Of a stretch of DNA of 64,000 nt, positions 9,330 to 62,752 are shown piece by piece (position 1 is the stretch's first letter; the number at the start of each line of letters is the position of its first letter). Origin of the DNA: Vicinamibacteria bacterium. Its GTDB lineage: Bacteria; Acidobacteriota; Vicinamibacteria; Fen-336. The notes beneath the pieces were generated by a model. The model made no database searches. It saw only the letters and a list, made by a program, of their open reading frames with translations, and had not been told where the DNA came from. Location: positions 32,391 to 96,390 of the forward strand of contig JAMPXO010000003.1 in the NCBI GenBank assembly GCA_023701125.1. Reading direction: 5' to 3'. Made by a program: the position numbers and the translations under genes.

Positions 9330-10475
9330 CTACAGGCGCCGCAGCGCCGTCGCGACCTCGAGGCGCATCGCGGCCAGGGCCGGCGCGAAGCCGGCGAACA
9401 GCCCGACGGCGACGGACAGGCCGAGCGCGGCCAGCAGGCCGGCGTCGGGCAGGTAGAACACGGGCAACATGCCGCCGGTGGGATCGCCCGCCAGCGTGAA
9501 CGCCTTGGCCAGCCCCGCGCCCAGCGCCCCGCCCATCACGGCGATCGCCAGCGACTCGGCCAGCACCAGGCCCAGCACGAAGCGGTCGCCGTAGCCGATC
9601 GCCTTCAGCACCGCGAGCTCGGACGTGCGCTCGCGCACGGCGCCGGCCATCGTGTTGCCGGTGACCAGCAGCAATGTGAAGACCACGACCGAGCCCACCG
9701 CCAGCATCAGCGTCTCGATGTTGCCCATCTGCTTGACGAACGAGGCGGCCATCGCCTTCTCGCTCTGGGCCCGCGTCTCCCACGCCGAGTTCGCGAAGCG
9801 CTCGTCGATGCGGCGGCAGATCTCGACCATGTCGGCGCCGGCCGCCATCCGCACGGAGTACCAGCCGACGTACCCCTCGGGGTAGCCGTCCGGCAGGTTC
9901 TCGTTCAGGTAGTCCCAGCGGAACCAGAACTGGGTCAGGTCGTCGTTGGCCTTGGTGCCCTCGTAGATGCCGACCAGCAGGAAATTCCACTCGCCCGCGA
10001 AGATCGCGCCCTGGATCGGGATCCGGTCGCCGACCTTCCAGCCGAAGCGTCTCGCGAGCGCCGCGCCCGCGATCGCGGCCGTGCGGTCGGACTGGAAGGA
10101 CTGCCAGGCCGCGTCGTCGATCCGGAACTCCCTGTACATCTCGCGGTAGGTGTCCTTGTCGACCGCGAACTGCGGGAAGAAGTTCTTCGGGTCCTGGTAG
10201 ACGCCGCCGAACCAGTTCGCGTAGCTGACCGCCTGCACGCCGGGGACCTTCAGGATCTGGTCGCGGTAGGCGAGCGGCAACGGCTGGATCAGCGACGTGC
10301 GGTTGGTGACGAAGATGCGGTCGGCACCGGCGGCGTCCACGCCCTGGTTGAACGAGGCGCGGATCGTGACCAGGATGCAGAACAGGAACAGCGCGATCGC
10401 GAACGAGGCCGCCGTGAGCGCGGTGCGCGCTTTCTTGCGCAGCAGGTTGGCCAGGACCAGGGGCAGGAAGCGCAC
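9330..10475 (-). CDS. ABC transporter permease, FtsX/MacB type
   Basis: MRFLPLVLANLLRKKARTALT N-terminus and ERTSELAVLKAIGYG FtsX core. 5 nt upstream of the next permease. Confidence 0.85.
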   Translation of the reverse strand: MRFLPLVLANLLRKKARTALTAASFAIALFLFCILVTIRASFNQGVDAAGADRIFVTNRTSLIQPLPLAYRDQILKVPGVQAVSYANWFGGVYQDPKNFFPQFAVDKDTYREMYREFRIDDAAWQSFQSDRTAAIAGAALARRFGWKVGDRIPIQGAIFAGEWNFLLVGIYEGTKANDDLTQFWFRWDYLNENLPDGYPEGYVGWYSVRMAAGADMVEICRRIDERFANSAWETRAQSEKAMAASFVKQMGNIETLMLAVGSVVVFTLLLVTGNTMAGAVRERTSELAVLKAIGYGDRFVLGLVLAESLAIAVMGGALGAGLAKAFTLAGDPTGGMLPVFYLPDAGLLAALGLSVAVGLFAGFAPALAAMRLEVATALRRL

Positions 10476-10479
10476 GGCG

Positions 10480-11217
10480 CTACGAAAGCTCCCCCTTGTC
10501 GAGGTGGAAGGTGACCTGGGCGCGGGCGGCGGCCCGTGGGTCGTGGGTCACCATCAGCACCGTCTTGCCGAAATCGCCCACCAGGTGGTGGAGCATGTCG
10601 AGGATCTCGTCCGCGCTGTGGCGGTCGAGGTCACCCGTCGGCTCGTCGCACAGCAGGAAGGTCGGGTCGCCGACGATCGCACGCGCGATGGCGACCCGCT
10701 GCTGCTGGCCGCCGGAGAGCTCGCGTGGCTTGTGGTCCATGCGGTCGTCGAGACCGACGACCCGCAGCGCGGTCGCCACCCGCTCGCGCCGCTCGGCCTT
10801 CGACAGCGGCAGCAGCAGCAGCGGCAGCTCGACGTTGCGGAAGGCCGACAGCACCGGGATCAGGTTGTACATCTGGAACACGAAGCCGACGTGGCGCGCC
10901 CGCCACGTCGTCAGCTTCGACCGCGAGAGCGACGTGATCGGGTCGCCGGCCACGCGGATGATCCCGGCCGACGGCACGTCGAGCCCGCCGATCAGGTTCA
11001 GCAGCGTGCTCTTGCCGGAGCCGGAGGGCCCCATCAGGGCGACGAACTCGCCGCGGTCGACGTCGAGGTTGACGTCCGTGAGGACGTGCAGGTCTTCGCT
11101 GCCGCGCCTGTAGTTCTTGGCGACGCCACGCAGACAGATCAGCGCTTCCGAGGGGGCCGTCGCTCCTACCCGGGCCATGATGGCGCTCATGCTACCGCCG
11201 CCCGAAAGAGCTTGCAT
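10480..11217 (-). CDS. ABC transporter ATP-binding protein (MacB/LolD-like)
   Basis: Walker A GPSGSGKST, signature LSGGQQQRVAIARA, Walker B LLCDEPTG. The start is ambiguous: ATG at 11217, 11190 or 11178. Confidence 0.9.
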   Translation of the reverse strand: MQALSGGGSMSAIMARVGATAPSEALICLRGVAKNYRRGSEDLHVLTDVNLDVDRGEFVALMGPSGSGKSTLLNLIGGLDVPSAGIIRVAGDPITSLSRSKLTTWRARHVGFVFQMYNLIPVLSAFRNVELPLLLLPLSKAERRERVATALRVVGLDDRMDHKPRELSGGQQQRVAIARAIVGDPTFLLCDEPTGDLDRHSADEILDMLHHLVGDFGKTVLMVTHDPRAAARAQVTFHLDKGELS

Positions 11218-21591: not shown

Positions 21592-22905
21592 CTAGAACAG
21601 CACCGTGAAGCGGGTCGGCCCTCCGGGCGCGGCCTCCAGCGAGAACGCGCAGCGGTGCTGGGCCAGGATTTCCTGGACGAGCGTGAGCCCGATGCCCTGG
21701 CCGCCCTCCTTCGTGCTGAAGAAGGGGGTGAACAGGTTCGCGCGGACCTCTTCGCTCAACCCGGGTCCCGTGTCGCGGACCTCGATCAGGCCGCGACCCT
21801 CGCGCCGCCCGGTCACCAGCGTGACGGTGCCGCCGCGGCCCGCCGCTTCGATGGCGTTCTTGATCACGTTGGCGAGTGCCTGCTCCAGCAGCGCCCGGTC
21901 CGCGTCCACGATGACCGGCGCCGGCGCCAGCTCCCAGGCGATGGCGACGCCTCGGGCCCGGGCGTGGGCCGCCAGCAGGCGGGCGAGATCGCCCAGCAAC
22001 TCCCCCACGTCCAGGCGCTCCCGGCGCGGAGGTGGCAACCGGAACAGCGCGGCGAAGCGGCCCAGGAAGTCGGCCAGCGCGCGGGTGCGTTCGATCACGA
22101 CGCCCAGCGCGTTTTCGTAGTCGCCACGGTCCTCGTCGCGCAACTGCGGCGCGTAGGCGAGGCAGGACTGCAGCAGCGAGCCCGAGGCGGCGACGGTGGT
22201 GTTGACCTCGTGCGACATCGTGCGGATCAGCTTCTCGTAGGCCGCGCGCTCGGAGCGCCGCAGTTCTTCGGTCAGCTCGTCGAGCACGAAGAAGCGCCTT
22301 CGGAATCCGCGATCGAGGAAGTGCCCACATTGCGCGCGGACGCGCCGCCCCGCGCTGAGGGTCGCGACCCGGGCCTCGCCATCCGCGAGGCCCGCCACCG
22401 CCTCGCCGAGCGGGCCCGGTAGCGACAGGAGGGCGACCCCGCGCAGCGCCGCAGGCTCGCTGTCGAGCAGGCGGGCGGCCGCCGGGTTGGCGACGTCGAC
22501 CCGCTCGTCGAAGTCCAGGACCAGGACGCCCGTGGCCGAGACCTCCAGGATGCGGCTCAGGAAGTGGTGCCGCTCCTCCGCGTGGACCCGTTCCGAGCGC
22601 AACTGGTCGGCCATCCGGTTGTAGACGTGGACCAGTTCGTCGACCTGCGGCTGGCCCGTGGCCACGAAGCGGGTCGTGAAGTCGCCCTCCTCCAGCAGCC
22701 GCGCGCTGTCGCGCGCCAGCTCCAGCGGCTCGAACAGCGCGGCCGTCAGACGGAAGCCGAGCAGCAGGCTGGCCACGAACAGCGTCTCGACCACGATCAG
22801 CGCCGAGCGGTTCTCGACGAGCAGCACGAAGGCCAGGGCGGCGAACACGCCGTGGATGGCGGCCAGGTACACGAGCACCCGCCCTCGTGGGCTCAGCAGC
22901 TTCAC
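21592..22905 (-). CDS. sensor histidine kinase (2 TM, HAMP, PAS, HisKA, HATPase)
   Basis: Two N-terminal TM segments. H-box IRTMSHEVNT, N-box NVIKNAIEA, G-boxes DTGPGL and GQGIGLTLV. Confidence 0.85.
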   Translation of the reverse strand: MKLLSPRGRVLVYLAAIHGVFAALAFVLLVENRSALIVVETLFVASLLLGFRLTAALFEPLELARDSARLLEEGDFTTRFVATGQPQVDELVHVYNRMADQLRSERVHAEERHHFLSRILEVSATGVLVLDFDERVDVANPAAARLLDSEPAALRGVALLSLPGPLGEAVAGLADGEARVATLSAGRRVRAQCGHFLDRGFRRRFFVLDELTEELRRSERAAYEKLIRTMSHEVNTTVAASGSLLQSCLAYAPQLRDEDRGDYENALGVVIERTRALADFLGRFAALFRLPPPRRERLDVGELLGDLARLLAAHARARGVAIAWELAPAPVIVDADRALLEQALANVIKNAIEAAGRGGTVTLVTGRREGRGLIEVRDTGPGLSEEVRANLFTPFFSTKEGGQGIGLTLVQEILAQHRCAFSLEAAPGGPTRFTVLF

Positions 22906-24128
22906 GTCGCCAGTCCTCCCGCGGTGTCACAATCCGGCATGCGTCCTGACGGGTCCTGGCACCCGGTCCTGCTGTGGATCACCGCCATTCTCCTGGCCCT
23001 CGGGTTCCACGTTCTGGCCCCGGTACTCGAAGTGCCTGACAGCGCGTCGTACCTCGCGCCGGCCCGTTCATGGGCGCGTGGCGACGGGCTGCTGGAGGCG
23101 GACGGATCGCCGATGTCCTACCGGATGCCGGCCTTCCCGCTGGTCGTCGGCATCGGGATCCGGCTCTCCGGCGATCCCGGGAACCTGGCCTCCGTCAGCC
23201 TGACGAACTTCGTCTGCCTGCTGCTCACCGCGCTGCTGACCCGACGCGCGATCCGGAGTCTCGGGGCGCCCGACCTCGCCGATCTCGGCGGGGCCGTGTG
23301 CCTCCTGTACCCGCCGCTGCTGACCTCCACGGCCCTCGTGCTGCAGGAGACCCTGCTCACGTTGTTCGTGACGCTGCTCTTCTCCTGCCTGGTGACGGCG
23401 ACGAAGGAGGACAGCTGGGGGCCAGCGGGCCTCGCCGGAGCCGCGCTCGGCCTCACGCTGCTGACCAAGCCCGTGATCGCTCCGACGGCGCCGCTGCTGC
23501 TGCTGCTGCTGGCTGCGACGCAGCGCAATGTTCGCAAGCGGGTCGCCGCGTTCTGCCTGCTGGCCGCCCTCGTGGTCGCGCCCTGGGCCATCCGCAACGC
23601 GGTGGTGCTGGGCCGCATCGAGCTGGCGCCGGGCAACACCGGGCACACGCTCCTGGGAGGCACCGTCTCCAACCAGATCGACGACTGGTACGGCTTCGAC
23701 GAGTACGAGAGCGCCGCTCGCGACTGGGCCGCGAGTGCTGCGGGCGCCGACACCCTCGACCGTCACCTGACCCGGGTCGCGCTCCACCGGATCGCGCAGG
23801 ACCCGGCCCGCTGGGCCCGGCTCTGCCTCGAGCGCGTGGGCCGCTTCATGCTTCCCTCGCGGGTCTTCTTCGTGCAGGCGGGGCTCTCGCGGACCGGCAG
23901 CTTCGGCCCCCTGTACGTGGTCGCCAGCCTGGTCAGCGTGGCGCTCTTCGCGCTCACGCTGTTCGTCGGCGGGCTGGCCTGGCGAAGGCGCGACCCCGCG
24001 CTGGCCGTCGGTCCGGTGCTCGTGTTGGGCCACGTGCTGGTCTACGCCGCCACCTACGTGAGCCCCCGCTACGCCCTGCCGATCACCCCGGCGCTGATCG
24101 CCTGCGCCGCCTGGGCCGCGCAAGTCGC

Positions 24129-25502
<1,374 letters not shown>

Positions 25503-25529: not shown

Positions 25530-26741
25530 CTACTCGTAGCGCAGGGCCTCGGCCGGTTCCAGCGAGGCCGCAAGGCGCGCCGGGTAGGCGGCAGCGGCGA
25601 GAGCCAGACCATAGAGGCCGAGGACCGAGAGCGCAAGAGAGCGGGCGAAGACCTCCGGACGGATGCCGCTGACGATGTCCATCAGCGGTACCTGGACCAC
25701 GAGCGCGACGCCAGCCAGCACCGCGATCGTGACCAGCAGCGCCACCTCGGCCAGCACCTGGCGGAACACATCGGCCGCCGCGGCGCCGTGGGCGCGACGC
25801 AGACCGATCTCGCGGGTACGCTGGGTGACGTTCTGCCACAGCACGCCCGACAGGCCGAGCGCCACCATGACCAGCAGGAACAACCCGATCACCCCGCCCG
25901 TCGCCAGCGGCACCAGGCTGATCGAGTTACGCGTGGACCGCATCTGGGACAGCGGCTCGATCTGAAACGTGTAGCCCGGGCGCTCCCGCTCGAGCCGCCG
26001 GAGCAGGCGCTCCTCGAGCGCCACCCCGCTGTCCGGCGCCACCCGGACCAGCATCACCCGCGGCAGCCGCCGGATCGCGCCGCTCGCGGGCTCCGCTCGC
26101 CGGAAGACGTAGTGCTCCGGCCCCATCAGTTCGCCGTCCTGGCGGTAGTCGGCGAGCACGCCGACGATGCGCCGGGCCGGGGGCGGCGCCGAGTCGCGCC
26201 CCTCCTGCTCCGCGGTCGCATCGCGCCCGACCACGTCCGCGGTGTCGAACACGTGGCGGGCGAACGACTCCGTGACGACGATCGGCTCGGCCGCGGCGCC
26301 GTCGTCTTCGCGGGAGAACCAGCGGCCGGCAAGCAGTTTGATCCCCAGCGCTTCGGGCAGCCCGTCGTCCGCGCTCGCGATCCGGAACCTGACCCGCCGG
26401 CCGGCGATGCGTCCGGCGTCCATCCACTGCGACTGCTGGAACGGGGCGGGGTCGATGAATGCCGCGGCCTGCACCTCGGGAAACTCGCGCACGGCAGCGC
26501 GCAGGGCGATCAGGTCTGCGCTCGCCATCACCTCGTCGCGGCGTTCGCCGGTGGACGGGCGGATCTGCACGAACCAGGCGTTCTCCCACTCGAAGCCCAG
26601 CGGCCGTCGCCAGTTGTCCGCTGCGACGACGGAGCCGAGCGTGACGCCGAACAGGACCAGGAACGAGGCGAACAGCTCGGCCAGCAACAGCGCCGACTGG
26701 CGCTTGCGGTGCCACACGAGACGCAGCAGGTGGAGGATCAT
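25530..26741 (-). CDS. ABC transporter permease, FtsX/MacB type
   Basis: ATG 26741 (MILHLLRLVWHRKRQS) overlaps the upstream stop (ATGA). FtsX core QRTREIGLRRAHGA. Confidence 0.8.
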   Translation of the reverse strand: MILHLLRLVWHRKRQSALLLAELFASFLVLFGVTLGSVVAADNWRRPLGFEWENAWFVQIRPSTGERRDEVMASADLIALRAAVREFPEVQAAAFIDPAPFQQSQWMDAGRIAGRRVRFRIASADDGLPEALGIKLLAGRWFSREDDGAAAEPIVVTESFARHVFDTADVVGRDATAEQEGRDSAPPPARRIVGVLADYRQDGELMGPEHYVFRRAEPASGAIRRLPRVMLVRVAPDSGVALEERLLRRLERERPGYTFQIEPLSQMRSTRNSISLVPLATGGVIGLFLLVMVALGLSGVLWQNVTQRTREIGLRRAHGAAAADVFRQVLAEVALLVTIAVLAGVALVVQVPLMDIVSGIRPEVFARSLALSVLGLYGLALAAAAYPARLAASLEPAEALRYE

Positions 26742-27975
26742 CGCGCGGCTCCCTTCAGCGCCTGCACGGGATGGAGGCGGGCCAGGCGCCACGCCGGGTA
26801 GGCCCCCGACAGCACGCCGAAGAAGACGGCCAGGCCGAGGCCGAGGCCGAACGTGCGCAGGTTGAGGCCCAGTTGCGCGTAGGGGATCAGGCCGCTGTGA
26901 TTGATCGCGGCCAGCACCAGCGGCGCGGCCAGCAGGGCGAGAGCGCCACCCAGCAGCGTGAGCACGACGTTCTCCAGTACGAACTGGCCGACCAGGCTCA
27001 ACGCCGACGCGCCGAACGCCTTGCGTACGCCGATCTCCGGGGCTCGCTCCAGGATGCGGCTGACCGAGAGGTTGACCAGGTTGATCGTCGGCAGTCCCAG
27101 GAACAGCAGGGTCAGCAGGCCCAGAACGCCGACCAGCCGCTCGGGCCGGCTCTCCGCTTCGTCATGGGTGTCGAAGAGCATCCGCGAGGTGCTGGCGAAC
27201 AGGGTCTCGGGCAGCGCCAGGATGCGCTCGAACCCGGGCTCCGCCGACAGGTCGATCCGCTGCAGGCGCGATCGGAACTCGGCCTGGATCTGCGGGAAGG
27301 CCGCCGCGTCGCGGGCCAGCAGGAGCCCCCAGAAATCGCCGCCGAGTTCCTTGCGGTAGGCCTGGTCCTTGGCCGCGGAGTGCGGGACCCAGACGTCGGA
27401 GAACGGCAGGGCCCGCAGCATCGAGACGTCCGCGACGACGCCCATCACGCGGTAGTTCACCCCGTCCACCTCGACGTCGCGGCCCAGCGCTGGAGCGTCG
27501 CCGAAGATCCGCTCGCGTGTGGAACGGTTCAGCACCGCCACCCGCGAGCCCGCCTCGACCTCGGCCTCGGCGAACGGAGCGCCCTCCAGGAACTCGAACT
27601 GGAGGACCCGCCAGTACTCGGCGTCGGTGCGCTTCATGTAGAGCCGGTGCTTCTGGCCGCCCTGGTAGGAAAACGCCTCGCGCATCGTCGAGGTGATCGC
27701 CATCCGCTCGACCCCGGGCAGGTCGCGCGCGTAGCGGTCGAGCAGGCCGAAGCCGGCCGGCGAAGTCGACTGCGCGTTCTTGCCCTCCATCCGGACGTTG
27801 AAGATCAGCAGCGTGCGATCGTGGTGGACCTCCGGCGGGAACGCCCCGAACACGTTGTCGAGCAGCGCCCCGGCCACGATCAGGACGAGCAGGGTCAGCG
27901 CGATGCCGAACAGGCTGATGGCCGTGAACACCTTGCGGCGCTGGAGCACGGCCAGGGCCAGGCGCAGGTGGCTCT

Positions 27976-27982
<7 letters not shown>
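26738..27982 (-). CDS. ABC transporter permease, FtsX/MacB type
   Basis: MLKSHLRLALAVLQRRKVFTAISLFGIAL N-terminus and FtsX core ERAPEIGVRKAFGA. Confidence 0.85.
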
Positions 27983-28644
<662 letters not shown>

Positions 28645-28657
28645 CCCTGCTCCTCCG

Positions 28658-29902
28658 TCAGCGCAGCCGCAACCGGCGCGCGGTCCCGAAGGCGCTCGTG
28701 TCGGAGACGAGCACCTCCTCCCCCTCCTGCAGTCCTTCGAGCACCTCGATGTGCTCGTAGCTCGCGACGCCCAGCCGCACGCTGCGGCGGCGGGCTTCCC
28801 CGCCTTCGACCACGAACACGTCCTGCACGCCGAGCCCGGTCAGGCCCGGACCGCGCGCGACCCGCAGCACGCCGGCTCGCTGCTCGGTGAGCACCTCGAC
28901 GTCGACCCGCAGATTCGGCCGCAGCGCCGCGTCGCTGGCGTCCTCCAGGGCCACCCGGAAGCTGACCGCCCCGCCCTGCACCGAGGGCTCGACCGCGGCC
29001 ACCGTGCCGGGCAGCGCCCGCTCGCCGAGCCGCACGCGGACGGGCATCCCGGGCCGGAGGACGTTCGCGTGCACGTCCGACAACGTGGCCTGCACGCGGA
29101 ACCGGGTCAGGTCGGCGACCCGGGCCAGCACGTCGCCCGGCCGCACCGTGGAGCCCTCGTCGGTGATCACGAACGTCAGCACCCCCGCCCGCTCGGCGCG
29201 GGCGGTCGCCCGCTGCAGCGTCCGCCACGCCTCGGCCCGCTCCTGGCGCAGGGTGCCGCCCTCGAGCGCGATCTGGCGCAGCCGGGCCGCGGTGCTGGCC
29301 GCCGCGTTCTTCTGCTCGAACTCGAGCTGCGCCACCTCGATCCGGGCCTGGGCGGTCGCCAGCTCGCTCTGCTGCAGCACTTCTTCCGCGATCAGGCCCT
29401 CGGCGTGCAGCTTGCGGTTGCGGGAGAGCTGGGATTCCAGGCTGGCGAGCTGCAGGCCGCGCACGTTGCGCCGGGCCTCGAGGTCGGACTGGGTGCGCTC
29501 GAGGGCCAGTCGCTCGCGCTCCTCGTCGGTCTCGCGCAGCGAAATCTGCTGGTCGAGCCGCTCCACCGCCAGCCGCGCCGGGGCCACGTCCAGTTCCAGG
29601 ATCGGCTCGCCCGCCGCGAGGGTCGCGCCCGGGCGCTTCAGGACGCGGAGCACACGCGCCTCGACAGGGCTGGTCAGGGCCTGCTCCGACTCGGGCAGCA
29701 CCGTCCCGCTGGCGGAGAGCGAGGCCGCGAGATCGCCACGCTCCACCCGCGCGAGCCGGACGCGGTCGCGGGCGATACTCGGTCCGAACCAGTACGGAAA
29801 CGCGAACCAGGCGGTCAGGCTGGCCACGACCACAGCCGCTGCGAGGCGGATGCGGCGGCGGCGCTGGTCAGCGACGAATTCGGCGTCGAGGGGGCGGTCC
29901 AT
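28658..29902 (-). CDS. HlyD-family periplasmic adaptor (membrane fusion protein)
   Basis: N-terminal TM (IRLAAAVVVASLTAWFAF), a coiled-coil hairpin region, and beta-barrel/lipoyl-like segments. ATG 29902 is preferred over 29965 because a sigma-54 promoter lies between them. Confidence 0.8.
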   Translation of the reverse strand: MDRPLDAEFVADQRRRRIRLAAAVVVASLTAWFAFPYWFGPSIARDRVRLARVERGDLAASLSASGTVLPESEQALTSPVEARVLRVLKRPGATLAAGEPILELDVAPARLAVERLDQQISLRETDEERERLALERTQSDLEARRNVRGLQLASLESQLSRNRKLHAEGLIAEEVLQQSELATAQARIEVAQLEFEQKNAAASTAARLRQIALEGGTLRQERAEAWRTLQRATARAERAGVLTFVITDEGSTVRPGDVLARVADLTRFRVQATLSDVHANVLRPGMPVRVRLGERALPGTVAAVEPSVQGGAVSFRVALEDASDAALRPNLRVDVEVLTEQRAGVLRVARGPGLTGLGVQDVFVVEGGEARRRSVRLGVASYEHIEVLEGLQEGEEVLVSDTSAFGTARRLRLR

Positions 29903-29923
29903 GTCGGTTCCGAGCCGACGTAG

Positions 29924-29939
29924 AGCAACCGCGATGCCA
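29924..29939 (-). promoter_or_regulatory. sigma-54 (-24/-12) promoter
   Basis: The minus strand reads CTGGCATCGCGGTTGCT. This is TGGCAT-N5-TTGCT with exact GG-N10-GC spacing, about 22-37 nt upstream of ATG 29902. Confidence 0.6.
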
Positions 29940-29997
29940 GCCAGAAACCCCTGTTTCAGGGGCACTTGTGGCTGATTCCGTGCGCCTTCGGACGAAC

Positions 29998-30019
29998 GGC
30001 CGTCCGGAACCGGACGGCC
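29998..30019. promoter_or_regulatory. 22-bp perfect palindrome: terminator of the lipid operon and/or bEBP upstream activating site
   Basis: GGCCGTCCGG-AA-CCGGACGGCC. It lies 11 nt after the stop of the CDP-alcohol transferase gene and roughly 95 bp upstream of the predicted sigma-54 start site. Confidence 0.45.
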
Positions 30020-30029
30020 CGGCCCGAGG

Positions 30030-30773
30030 CTAGCGGGAGCGCTCGATCAAGCGCCTCGAGATCCAGATCGTGCGATGGGTCGCGGTCCAGAAGGTGCCGA
30101 CCGCGATCGCGCCGAGCACGAACAGCGACGGCGTCCCGCTCTGCCAGCCGAAGCGCTCGCACAGCGCCGTGTCGGACAGGCAGACGAGACAGGTGAGCAC
30201 GAGTCGCTCCGCGCGCTGCATCAGGCCCTCCTTGCACAGCACGCCGAGCGACTCGCCGCGGGCCCGCGCGTAGCTGACCAGCAGCGAGCCGGACAGCGCC
30301 GCGGCGGCCACCAGCGCACCGTGCTCGCGGTCGCGCAGGAAGTAGACGAAGCCGAGCAGGCAGAACACCTCGACGAAGCGGTCCAGCGTGCTGTCGATGA
30401 ACTTGCCGTAGTCCGAGTCGAGCTTGCGCGCGCGCGCGATGCGGCCGTCGAGGATGTCGCAAACGCCGCCGGCCGCGATCGCCCAGCCGCCGGCCTCGAG
30501 GTGACCGAGCCCGATGCAGACGCCCGACACCGCGCCGAAGAACAGGCCGGCGAAGTTGAACACGTCGGGCGTCGCCCCCATCGCGAGGAAGAGCCGCTCG
30601 ACCGGCCCGATCACCCACATGAACCAGTGAACCAGGAAGTTGCCCGCGCCGCCCGCGAACTGGGTGTTCTTCTTCGTGGCGTCGGCGTCGCGACCTGCGC
30701 CGGTCAGGGCGAACACGGCCATCGAGGCGAACGCGGTGCCGAAGATGGCGAGAAGGATCTGCAAGCTGCTCAT
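30030..30773 (-). CDS. CDP-alcohol phosphatidyltransferase family protein
   Basis: DILDGRIARARKLDSDYGKFIDSTLD matches the DGx2ARx8Gx3Dx3D signature. Multi-TM, 247 aa. Confidence 0.85.
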   Translation of the reverse strand: MSSLQILLAIFGTAFASMAVFALTGAGRDADATKKNTQFAGGAGNFLVHWFMWVIGPVERLFLAMGATPDVFNFAGLFFGAVSGVCIGLGHLEAGGWAIAAGGVCDILDGRIARARKLDSDYGKFIDSTLDRFVEVFCLLGFVYFLRDREHGALVAAAALSGSLLVSYARARGESLGVLCKEGLMQRAERLVLTCLVCLSDTALCERFGWQSGTPSLFVLGAIAVGTFWTATHRTIWISRRLIERSR

Positions 30774-42512: not shown

Positions 42513-42572
42513 GGGAATATCGAGGCAGGACAAGGCTTAAGCCAAATACCCATGAGGTGTTACGTGAGAGGA

Positions 42573-61315: not shown

Positions 61316-62743
61316 CTAGTGCGCCGACTTGCGAAGGTTGGACGGCGGGATGCGCAGCTCCTCGCGGTACTTGGCGACCGTGCGCCGCGCCAGCGGCACG
61401 CCCTCCGCCTGCAACAGCTCGGCGATCCGCGAGTCGGACAGCGGGTGCTGCGAGTCCTCGGCCTCGATCATCTTGCGGATGCGGTCCTTGATCGTGACCG
61501 AGCTGACCGACTCGCCCATCGAGGAGGTGATGCCGCTGTGGAAGAAGAAGCGCATCTCGTACACCCCGCGCGGGGTGTGCATGTACTTGTTGGCGACCAC
61601 GCGCGACACCGTCGACTCGTGCATGCCGATGTCGTTCGCCACGTCGCGCAGCACCAGCGGCCGCAGGTGCTCGATGCCGCGGTCGAGGAAGGCGCGCTGG
61701 TGGCGCACGATCGACTCGGCGACGCGGAAGATCGTGCGCTGGCGCTGGTCGACGCTCTTCAACAGCCACAGCGCGCTGCGCAGCTTGTCCTTGACGTAGG
61801 CCCGGGTCTGCTCCGAGCCCGGCTCCTTGTCGTCGAGCATGCGCCGGTAGGTCGGGCTGATCCGCAGCCGCGGCAGTCCCTCGTTGTTGAGCTCGATCCG
61901 GTACTCCTCGGCGTCCTTGATCACGAACACGTCGGGCGTGACGTAGGCGGCGTCCTGCGGCGAGTACCGCATCCCGGGCTTGGGGTCGAGGCGCTGGATG
62001 ATCTCCAGGTGGTGGGCGACCTCGTCCTGGGTCAGGTTCATCGCCCGCGCGATCTCGGAGTACTGGTGGGTCTGCAGTTGCTTCAGGTGGTCGCGGACGA
62101 TCAGGTCGGTGACCGAGCCGTCGAGGTGGAGCGCGCGGAGCTGCAGCCGCAGGCACTCGCCGATGTCGCGGGCCGCCACCCCGGCCGGGTCGAGCTGCTG
62201 GACGATGGCGAGTGCCCGCGTCACCTCGTCGGCCGGGTACGGCCCCATGTTGGCGATGTCGTCGAGCGACACCCGCAGCATGCCGTCCTCGTCGAGGCTG
62301 TCGATGATCTTCTCCGCGATCTCGACCAGCAGGTCGTCGGAGACCGACAGCACCAGCTGCCACTTGAGGTGGTCGTAGAGGTTGGTCGCCGCGGTCAGCG
62401 TGTTCTCGATCGGCGGCGCCTCGGGGATCTCGGTGCCGCGCGTGCGGCGCTGCTCGCGGTCGGCCTCGGCGTACTCCTCGAAGAACTTCTCGATGTCGAT
62501 CTGCTCCAGCGGGTCGTCCGCTTTCGCCTTTTCGGCCGCGGCTTCTTCCTGCGTCTCCTCGGCCGTCTGCGCCTCCTGCGGCGCCTCCTCCAGCAGGGGG
62601 TTCTCCATCACCTCCTGCTCCAGGACCTCGGCCAGCTCCAGGGTGGTGAGGGGCAACAGCTTGATCGCCTGCTGCAGCGACGGCGTGAGGACGAGCCGCT
62701 GCGAGAGGCGTGCCTGCAGTCCCAGCTTCTGTTGAATCGCCAA
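61316..62743 (-). CDS. rpoN: RNA polymerase sigma-54 factor
   Basis: N-terminal Gln/Leu region (QKLGLQARLSQRLVLTPSLQQAIKLL), an acidic region II, and the RpoN box ARRTVAKYRE. Confidence 0.95.
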   Translation of the reverse strand: MAIQQKLGLQARLSQRLVLTPSLQQAIKLLPLTTLELAEVLEQEVMENPLLEEAPQEAQTAEETQEEAAAEKAKADDPLEQIDIEKFFEEYAEADREQRRTRGTEIPEAPPIENTLTAATNLYDHLKWQLVLSVSDDLLVEIAEKIIDSLDEDGMLRVSLDDIANMGPYPADEVTRALAIVQQLDPAGVAARDIGECLRLQLRALHLDGSVTDLIVRDHLKQLQTHQYSEIARAMNLTQDEVAHHLEIIQRLDPKPGMRYSPQDAAYVTPDVFVIKDAEEYRIELNNEGLPRLRISPTYRRMLDDKEPGSEQTRAYVKDKLRSALWLLKSVDQRQRTIFRVAESIVRHQRAFLDRGIEHLRPLVLRDVANDIGMHESTVSRVVANKYMHTPRGVYEMRFFFHSGITSSMGESVSSVTIKDRIRKMIEAEDSQHPLSDSRIAELLQAEGVPLARRTVAKYREELRIPPSNLRKSAH

Positions 62744-62752
62744 GATCGGTCC

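Follow-up and report, generated by a model that had tools for sequence, protein, structure and literature searches.

Layout of the control region and its promoter

The stretch of DNA analysed here (the window) comprises 64,000 nucleotides of a Vicinamibacteria bacterium (GenBank assembly GCA_023701125.1, contig JAMPXO010000003.1, positions 32,391 to 96,390), with a G+C content of about 72%. On its minus strand it carries an operon for a MacB-type export pump, which begins with the gene of an HlyD-type periplasmic adaptor and ends with that of an NtrC-type activator. In front of the operon lies a gap of 127 bp, from the TAG (30032-30030) of a CDP-alcohol phosphatidyltransferase gene to the ATG at 29902 of the adaptor gene. 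Judging from its sequence and conservation, this gap is likely to be a compact enhancer-dependent sigma-54 control region of a self-activating pump operon. Its features, together with the first gene of the operon and the gene for the sigma factor, are as follows.

30001-30016, minus strand: upstream activating sequence (UAS) 1, CGTCCGGTTCCGGACG, the distal and stronger site and the core of a 22-mer, centred at about -95.5 from the predicted transcription start.
29979-29994, minus strand: UAS2, CGTCCGAAGGCGCACG, the proximal and weaker site, centred at about -73.5 and 22 bp from UAS1.
29943-29962, minus strand: A/T-containing spacer element CCCCTGAAACAGGGGTTTCT, which holds a second palindrome and a GAAAC..GTTTC repeat.
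29924-29939, minus strand: sigma-54 -24/-12 promoter element TGGCATCGCGGTTGCT, recognised by consensus, matrix and conservation in orthologues.
29903-29913, minus strand: predicted transcription start at about 29913 and an 11-nt leader, placed by the usual distance from -12 to +1.
28658-29902, minus strand: HlyD-type periplasmic adaptor, 414 amino acids from ATG 29902 (Pfam HlyD_3 and HlyD_D23).
61316-62752 (approximate; stop-to-stop open reading frame), minus strand: rpoN, encoding sigma-54, with the RpoN box ARRTVAKYR.

The element TGGCATCGCGGTTGCT matches the consensus TGGCAC-N5-TTGCW at 10 of the 11 specified positions. Its GG and GC doublets are spaced by 10 nt, and it ends 22 nt before the A of ATG 29902, with 21 nt in between. 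The pattern TGGCAYN5TTGCW occurs once on the two strands of the window (128 kb), against an expectation of 0.02. The first-pass annotation, made from the letters of the window and a list of its open reading frames, had placed a sigma-54 promoter at exactly this position and rpoN in the same window; the sequence, the doublet spacing and the distance to the start codon are as it described, and the product of rpoN has a typical N-terminus besides the RpoN box.

Conservation of the element was assessed in orthologous loci. Of 399 relatives revealed by a genome scan, 80 were examined, the majority from Acidobacteriota (Vicinamibacteria, Blastocatellia and others), and seven further loci were obtained by looking up closer relatives (83-97% identity). 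As controls, 11,614 windows were drawn from the same orthologous loci. In the 150 nt that precede the adaptor start, 53 of 71 loci have the strict core TGG[CT]N7TTGC, compared with 0.5% of controls, and 65 of 71 have a looser -24/-12 core, compared with 5.8%; the element thus recurs at the same place in 53 to 65 of the 71 loci. The pattern TGGCA[CT] was too strict and caught few orthologous promoters, most family members having TGGCC or TGGCG. Among relatives at 83-97% protein identity TGGCATC and GTTGC are unchanged, while the spacer, the flanks and the leader vary. The comparison establishes, at the level of sequence, a conserved sigma-54-type element in front of the adaptor gene.

The element was also scored with a matrix built from 64 orthologous promoters, among which neither the window nor the close relatives L001-L004 were included. 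TGGCATCGCGGTTGCT reached 17.07 bits, the maximum of the window, and the runner-up, within the kinase gene, 12.55 bits. In 729 kb of high-GC relatives, outside designated own-promoter regions, there was one site of at least 13 bits (14.3 bits) and none of at least 15 bits; the 14.3-bit site, about 29 nt in front of the L067 adaptor, is probably the promoter of that locus itself. Other sigma-54-like matches in the window, on the minus strand at 22613, 9685, 23548 and 10453 and on the plus strand at 29401, lie in genes or were set aside and are probably due to chance, as is probably a match at 42544, in which the GC doublet is absent.

These observations bear on the start of the adaptor. If translation began at GTG 29965, the 'promoter' would be a chance likeness that codes, together with the second palindrome, for the N-terminus. 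An open frame does run from there, and 17.07 bits was attained in 24 of 200 Markov-simulated windows (12%). The matrix score does not, then, settle the matter by itself; position and conservation do. Homologues of the adaptor number in the hundreds, and among 120 listed about 100 have 414 amino acids, beginning MDRPLD, with 100% coverage. D2 and R3 are invariant in 25 diverse members. The supposed extension carries indels, frame-breaking ones among them (a 1-nt deletion between 29965 and 29902 in a 97%-identical relative, and 4- and 6-nt indels in others), and the promoter is kept in orthologues. Because of the 414-residue homologues, the invariant residues and the indels, a start at ATG 29902 is preferred and well supported by the sequence comparison, as had been claimed from the window alone, and the start at GTG 29965 is scarcely credible.

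The predicted 11-nt leader lacks a clear Shine-Dalgarno sequence, and its length differs by indels among close relatives. It should be added that in 13 orthologous loci (L005, L006, L016, L020, L025, L029, L036, L044, L054, L063, L074, L082 and L083) the promoter motif lies only 11-13 nt from the start codon, so that the sigma-54 transcripts predicted for them would have no leader or one of about 2 nt. Several of these loci start with GTG; the window has its leader of about 11 nt, but GGAGG at internal genes.

Tandem dyad sites upstream of the promoter

The 22-mer GGCCGTCCGGTTCCGGACGGCC occupies 30019-29998 on the minus strand. It had been described as a perfect palindrome; its location and dyad symmetry stand, but the two 10-bp arms enclose a non-symmetric TT/AA centre and the palindrome is not perfect. 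Its core is UAS1, which with UAS2 forms a tandem pair of the kind found in orthologous upstream regions, where the family site consensus is TGTCCG-N4-CGGACA. With a family UAS matrix the whole window yielded two standout matches, at 30002-30015 (20.5 bits) and 29980-29993 (11.8 bits). In 47 of 71 loci the pattern GTNCG-N4-CGNAC occurs in the 150 nt preceding the -24 element, compared with 0.4% of controls; by matrix, at least one site was found in 64 of 66 loci and at least two in 51. Of 53 spacings between neighbouring sites, 45 measure 21-22 bp and 50 measure 20-22 bp, and the distal site of a pair is usually the stronger. The UAS1 core CCGTCCGG-NN-CCGGACG is identical in five close relatives, in which the outer GGCC arms vary with no compensatory changes, and the changes seen in UAS2 among close relatives are confined to degenerate positions of the motif. 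By motif, spacing and conservation alike there are two predicted activator sites here, not one.

The 22-mer could also be mainly a hairpin terminator of the upstream lipid-synthesis genes, its likeness to an enhancer being incidental, and the first-pass annotation had allowed for either role. The palindrome follows the TAG of the co-directional phosphatidyltransferase gene at a distance of about 14 nt, and the region folds at -73.9 kcal/mol (z = -3.2). High-GC bacteria are reported to use hairpins that lack U tails, which counts in favour of a terminator. However, there is no T-run, the tail reading GTTCGTCCG, and an intrinsic-terminator scan found none here. The core sequence is invariant whereas the outer stem is not maintained, and a terminator would not need the second, weaker copy 22 bp away. 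Moreover, the same 16-bp motif stands at a fixed distance from the promoter where the upstream gene is unrelated or divergent: the lipid gene that lies upstream here is shared by the closest relatives only, and for about 39 of 64 loci a crude call from open reading frames and third-position G+C puts the upstream gene on the opposite strand, the dyads still being there. The pair is kept whatever the upstream gene or its strand, and we therefore favour an enhancer over a terminator alone; a mainly terminating palindrome is very improbable. That UAS1 has a dual role, as an enhancer and in ending upstream transcription, is conceivable if unlikely. An Rfam search of 29600-30300 returned a single sub-threshold miRNA match, which was treated as chance.

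No convincing further targets were found when the 7-kb flanks of relatives were searched for extra enhancer sites. In L069, L070 and L077 a strong enhancer-like dyad, TGTACGAATCCGTACA, lies at +135 inside the adaptor gene and may be a by-product of the conserved peptide V-R-I-R-T that it encodes.

Between UAS2 and the promoter lies the A/T-containing element. The second palindrome that had been noted here, CCCCTGAAACAGGGG at 29962-29948 on the minus strand, is present; it is not conserved as a palindrome and overlaps a conserved A/T element. Its CCCCTG/CAGGGG arms are not kept even at 83% protein identity, while GAAA(A)C followed by GGTTT is kept in close relatives. Of 65 loci, 24 have an AAWYC element that precedes the TGG by 16-20 nt. 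Low-GC relatives have AATCAANNNNTTA at this place, which matches the consensus of integration host factor (IHF); the element of the window has three mismatches to it, and the strict IHF consensus stands at the fixed position in six loci only. We would guess from these sequences that 29943-29962 is an IHF or other DNA-bending site; alternatively it might be a weak stop to read-through, consisting of a hairpin and TTTCT.

The pump operon, its activator and the proposed circuit

The genes downstream of the adaptor gene, and those next to the operon, are listed below.

27976-28644, minus strand: ABC (ATP-binding cassette) ATPase of the MacB/LolD/DarD type (Pfam, NCBIfam).
26738-27982, minus strand: MacB_PCD/FtsX permease 1, 414 amino acids (Pfam, NCBIfam).
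25530-26741, minus strand: MacB_PCD/FtsX permease 2, 403 amino acids from ATG 26741, as in the L001 orthologue (Pfam, NCBIfam).
24129-25502, minus strand: NtrC-family response-regulator activator with a receiver domain (REC), an AAA+ domain with a GAFTDA loop, and HTH_8 (Pfam).
22939-24165, plus strand: PMT_2 (ArnT-like) membrane glycosyltransferase, between the activator and kinase genes.
21592-22905, minus strand: cognate histidine kinase with two transmembrane helices, HAMP, PAS and HATPase_c (Pfam), 80% identical to the L001 kinase.

The order adaptor, ATPase, permease, permease and NtrC-type activator, from 28658-29902 down to 24129-25502, had been proposed from the translations and is borne out by Pfam, so that the gene content of the operon may be taken as established from its sequence. 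A GGAGG ribosome-binding site is present at the adaptor/ATPase junction, the start of permease 1 overlaps the ATPase stop codon, the two permease genes share an ATGA overlap and 27 nt precede the activator gene; such overlapping and closely spaced genes fit a single transcript. All NCBIfam matches of the operon proteins lie below the family cut-offs. This includes the ADOP model TIGR03434 (cut-off 622), which describes a single chain of about 800 amino acids with two FtsX modules; the permeases of 414 and 403 amino acids match its N-terminal and C-terminal halves with 142 and 168 bits. The two permeases look like a split version of the duplicated ADOP permease of acidobacteria. No gene for a TolC-like outer-membrane factor is present in the operon, to which this search was confined.

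The activator, encoded by the fifth gene of the operon, is the only one found when the window was searched. Its AAA+ domain matches Sigma54_activat (E = 2.7e-65) and has Walker motifs; the L1 loop reads GAFTDA, is kept in 48 of 51 orthologues and is among the tolerated variants of this loop (PMC4641369). The receiver domain has Asp50 in a conserved QDMNF context, and the C-terminus is a Fis-type helix-turn-helix (HTH_8). The protein remains below the NCBIfam cut-offs for AtoC (394.9 versus 714), NtrC (377 versus 558.6), GlrR (343.7 versus 763) and ZraR (318.9 versus 760), and the closest solved structures are Aquifex NtrC-family proteins.

In most complete orthologous loci the kinase gene is the final gene of the operon, directly after the activator gene, and in L001, an 83%-identical relative, the two are adjacent with a gap of 4 nt. 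The kinase gene is thus a member of the ancestral form of the operon. The two membrane helices of the kinase are joined by 2-6 residues, a topology kept in 31 of 32 orthologues. In the window the starts of the kinase and glycosyltransferase genes are 33 nt apart, and the 3' end of the latter overlaps that of the activator gene by 37 nt.

It is their association that links UAS1 and UAS2 to the operon's own regulator, and this leaves room for another reading, in which the sites are operators of a different factor, such as a repressor, and transcription of the operon comes from a sigma-70-type promoter that has gone unrecognised, the -24/-12 element being a bystander. Sigma-70 promoters are hard to recognise in high-GC bacteria, and some loci have sites with no activator nearby. 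Nevertheless, a scan of the region for sigma-70 promoters showed none, and in different classes of Acidobacteriota the -24/-12 element is kept along with the sites, the distance between them being constrained. Tandem dyads two helical turns apart and 50-90 bp upstream of -24 are, furthermore, the classic layout of activator sites, and an activator and a kinase accompany the operon in most complete loci. We consider control by a different factor improbable, and propose from co-occurrence that the operon-encoded regulator binds UAS1 and UAS2. Activators of the NtrC class bind sites 70-150 bp from the transcription start, and the two dyads are centred at about -95 and -73 from the predicted one.

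The same arrangement was sought motif first in metagenome contigs, which were scanned for GTCCGGNNCCGGAC-N58-80-TGGC-N7-TTGC. This gave at least 120 matches, of which 115 were usable; the counts that follow refer to the matches listed. A homologue of the HlyD adaptor (23-50% identity) lay directly downstream of 27 of the 115, FtsX permeases or ABC ATPases downstream of five, and a distant adaptor or duplicated FtsX permeases downstream of a further three. Adaptor-linked matches had higher promoter scores, and about half of them a recognisable second site. In L103, L108, L142, L164 and L182 a strong tandem pair with a -24/-12 element stands about 115 nt upstream of a gene for protein-L-isoaspartate O-methyltransferase (PCMT), which may be another target class of such activators. 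Taken with the pump-linked matches, the PCMT loci indicate that the enhancer grammar is strongly enriched for the pump and not exclusive to it.

From these elements the following course of events may be proposed. Sigma-54 RNA polymerase would wait in a closed complex on TGGCAT-N5-TTGCT (29939-29924) while the cognate membrane kinase phosphorylates the operon-encoded NtrC-type regulator, presumably on Asp50. Regulator dimers would then bind UAS1 (30016-30001) and UAS2 (29994-29979), two helical turns apart, and assemble into an ATPase ring, which the spacer of about 40 bp would allow to loop to the polymerase, perhaps aided by a bend at 29962-29943. Opening of the promoter by the ring would yield a transcript from about 29913 through the adaptor, ATPase, both permeases and the activator (29902 to 24129). 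Activation would thereby supply more regulator and close a positive feedback. Such an autoregulatory circuit had been suggested from the window alone, and the position of the activator gene as the fifth of a tight operon, together with the absence of any other activator in the window, lends it support at the level of sequence.

Several observations weigh against this interpretation. The promoter score can, as stated, be reached in simulated windows, and UAS1 follows closely on a stop codon within a very stable hairpin. L014, L048, L068 and L070 have the sites and the promoter but no activator within 7 kb; co-location is therefore common rather than universal, and the motif could be read by a paralogous activator instead. 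The helical phasing between enhancer and promoter, for which a Rayleigh test peaked at 10.5-11 bp, falls to p of about 0.05 once identical positions are collapsed, and as the loci are non-independent it is suggestive only. About 65 of the 115 metagenomic matches listed have no second site and seem to be due to chance. Finally, the kinase gene is split from the operon in this genome by the inserted glycosyltransferase gene, and the feedback here would therefore cover the regulator only.

Some further features were seen in passing. The open reading frames 9330-10475 (381 amino acids) and 10480-11217 (245 amino acids) on the minus strand resemble, as judged by eye from their translations, a second pair of FtsX-type permease and ABC ATPase; the sigma-54-like matches at 9685-9670 and 10453-10438 lie inside the former and are probably chance. 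Between 40001 and 44000 the G+C content of the window drops to about 0.655, compared with about 0.72 elsewhere. Among the relatives, an operon of acidobacterial type occurs in records of metagenome-assembled genomes titled Heliomicrobium, Heliobacteriaceae, Clostridia, Bifidobacteriaceae or Cytophagia (L009, L010, L013, L015, L050, L066 and others), and these titles seem to fit neither the genes nor the G+C of the contigs.

Relation to known systems and significance

The glnAp2/NtrC and dctA/DctD systems are enhancer-dependent sigma-54 promoters with tandem upstream sites. The region described here resembles promoters of the NtrC family in its GG-N10-GC element and in the strong and weak dyad sites placed upstream on one face of the helix; a REC/AAA+/Fis-type helix-turn-helix activator with a histidine kinase, and a regulator gene within the regulated operon, are also shared with such systems. 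The system differs from those of NtrC and DctD in the great compactness of the region, where the sites are centred at about -95 and about -73, in the L1 loop of the activator, which has GAFTDA in place of GAFTGA, and in the target, which is an export pump and not nitrogen or dicarboxylate metabolism.

The pump itself is like MacAB-TolC, LolCDE and DarCDE (type VII) in combining MacB_PCD and FtsX permeases with a LolD/DarD-like ATPase and an HlyD-type adaptor. Two separate permease genes are present, as with LolC and LolE. The operon has no gene for an outer-membrane factor.

Another parallel is offered by BceRS-BceAB, the modules for detoxification of antimicrobial peptides in Firmicutes. As in Bce, an FtsX-family ABC transporter is encoded with a two-component system whose kinase has two helices and almost no outside loop. 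In contrast to Bce, the regulator is an NtrC-type sigma-54 activator and not of the OmpR type, HAMP and PAS domains are found in the kinase, and the module includes a periplasmic adaptor and belongs to a diderm host. By analogy, and as a rather doubtful proposition, the module might be a diderm counterpart of Bce wired through sigma-54, in which a kinase with no sensor of its own would read the activity or load of the pump and the enhancer would make the response self-amplifying.

A literature search returned no paper describing this module or the site consensus TGTCCG-N4-CGGACA. Francke et al. 2011 (PMC3162934) make no mention of HlyD, FtsX or Acidobacteria. A more recent study based on promoter matrices (PLoS One 2025, PMC12316311) reported that COG0577 permeases and COG1136 ATPases are enriched downstream of sigma-54 promoters in Opitutia, Bacteroidia and Gammaproteobacteria, and claims the first evidence tying sigma-54 to the FtsX/MacB-type transporter family. 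In that study, as compared with the locus described here, Acidobacteria are unmentioned, and no activator site, tandem enhancer or operon-encoded two-component system is defined.

The architecture is mechanistically expected and leaves the understanding of sigma-54 control unchanged. The computationally predicted link between sigma-54 and MacB/FtsX exporters is extended by it to a new phylum, with an activator site added and, for this operon, a start codon corrected. For a module with a wide distribution in Acidobacteriota, a major soil phylum that has been little studied, the promoter, the two-site consensus and their spacing make up a concrete grammar of regulation that can be put to the test, and with the site consensus the regulon can be traced in metagenomes. 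The motif-first scan suggests, moreover, that the same enhancer grammar (GTCCGG-NN-CCGGAC pairs with a -24/-12 element) is common to several distantly related HlyD/FtsX operons; if true, this would represent a broad, undescribed type of regulon for envelope export in soil bacteria.

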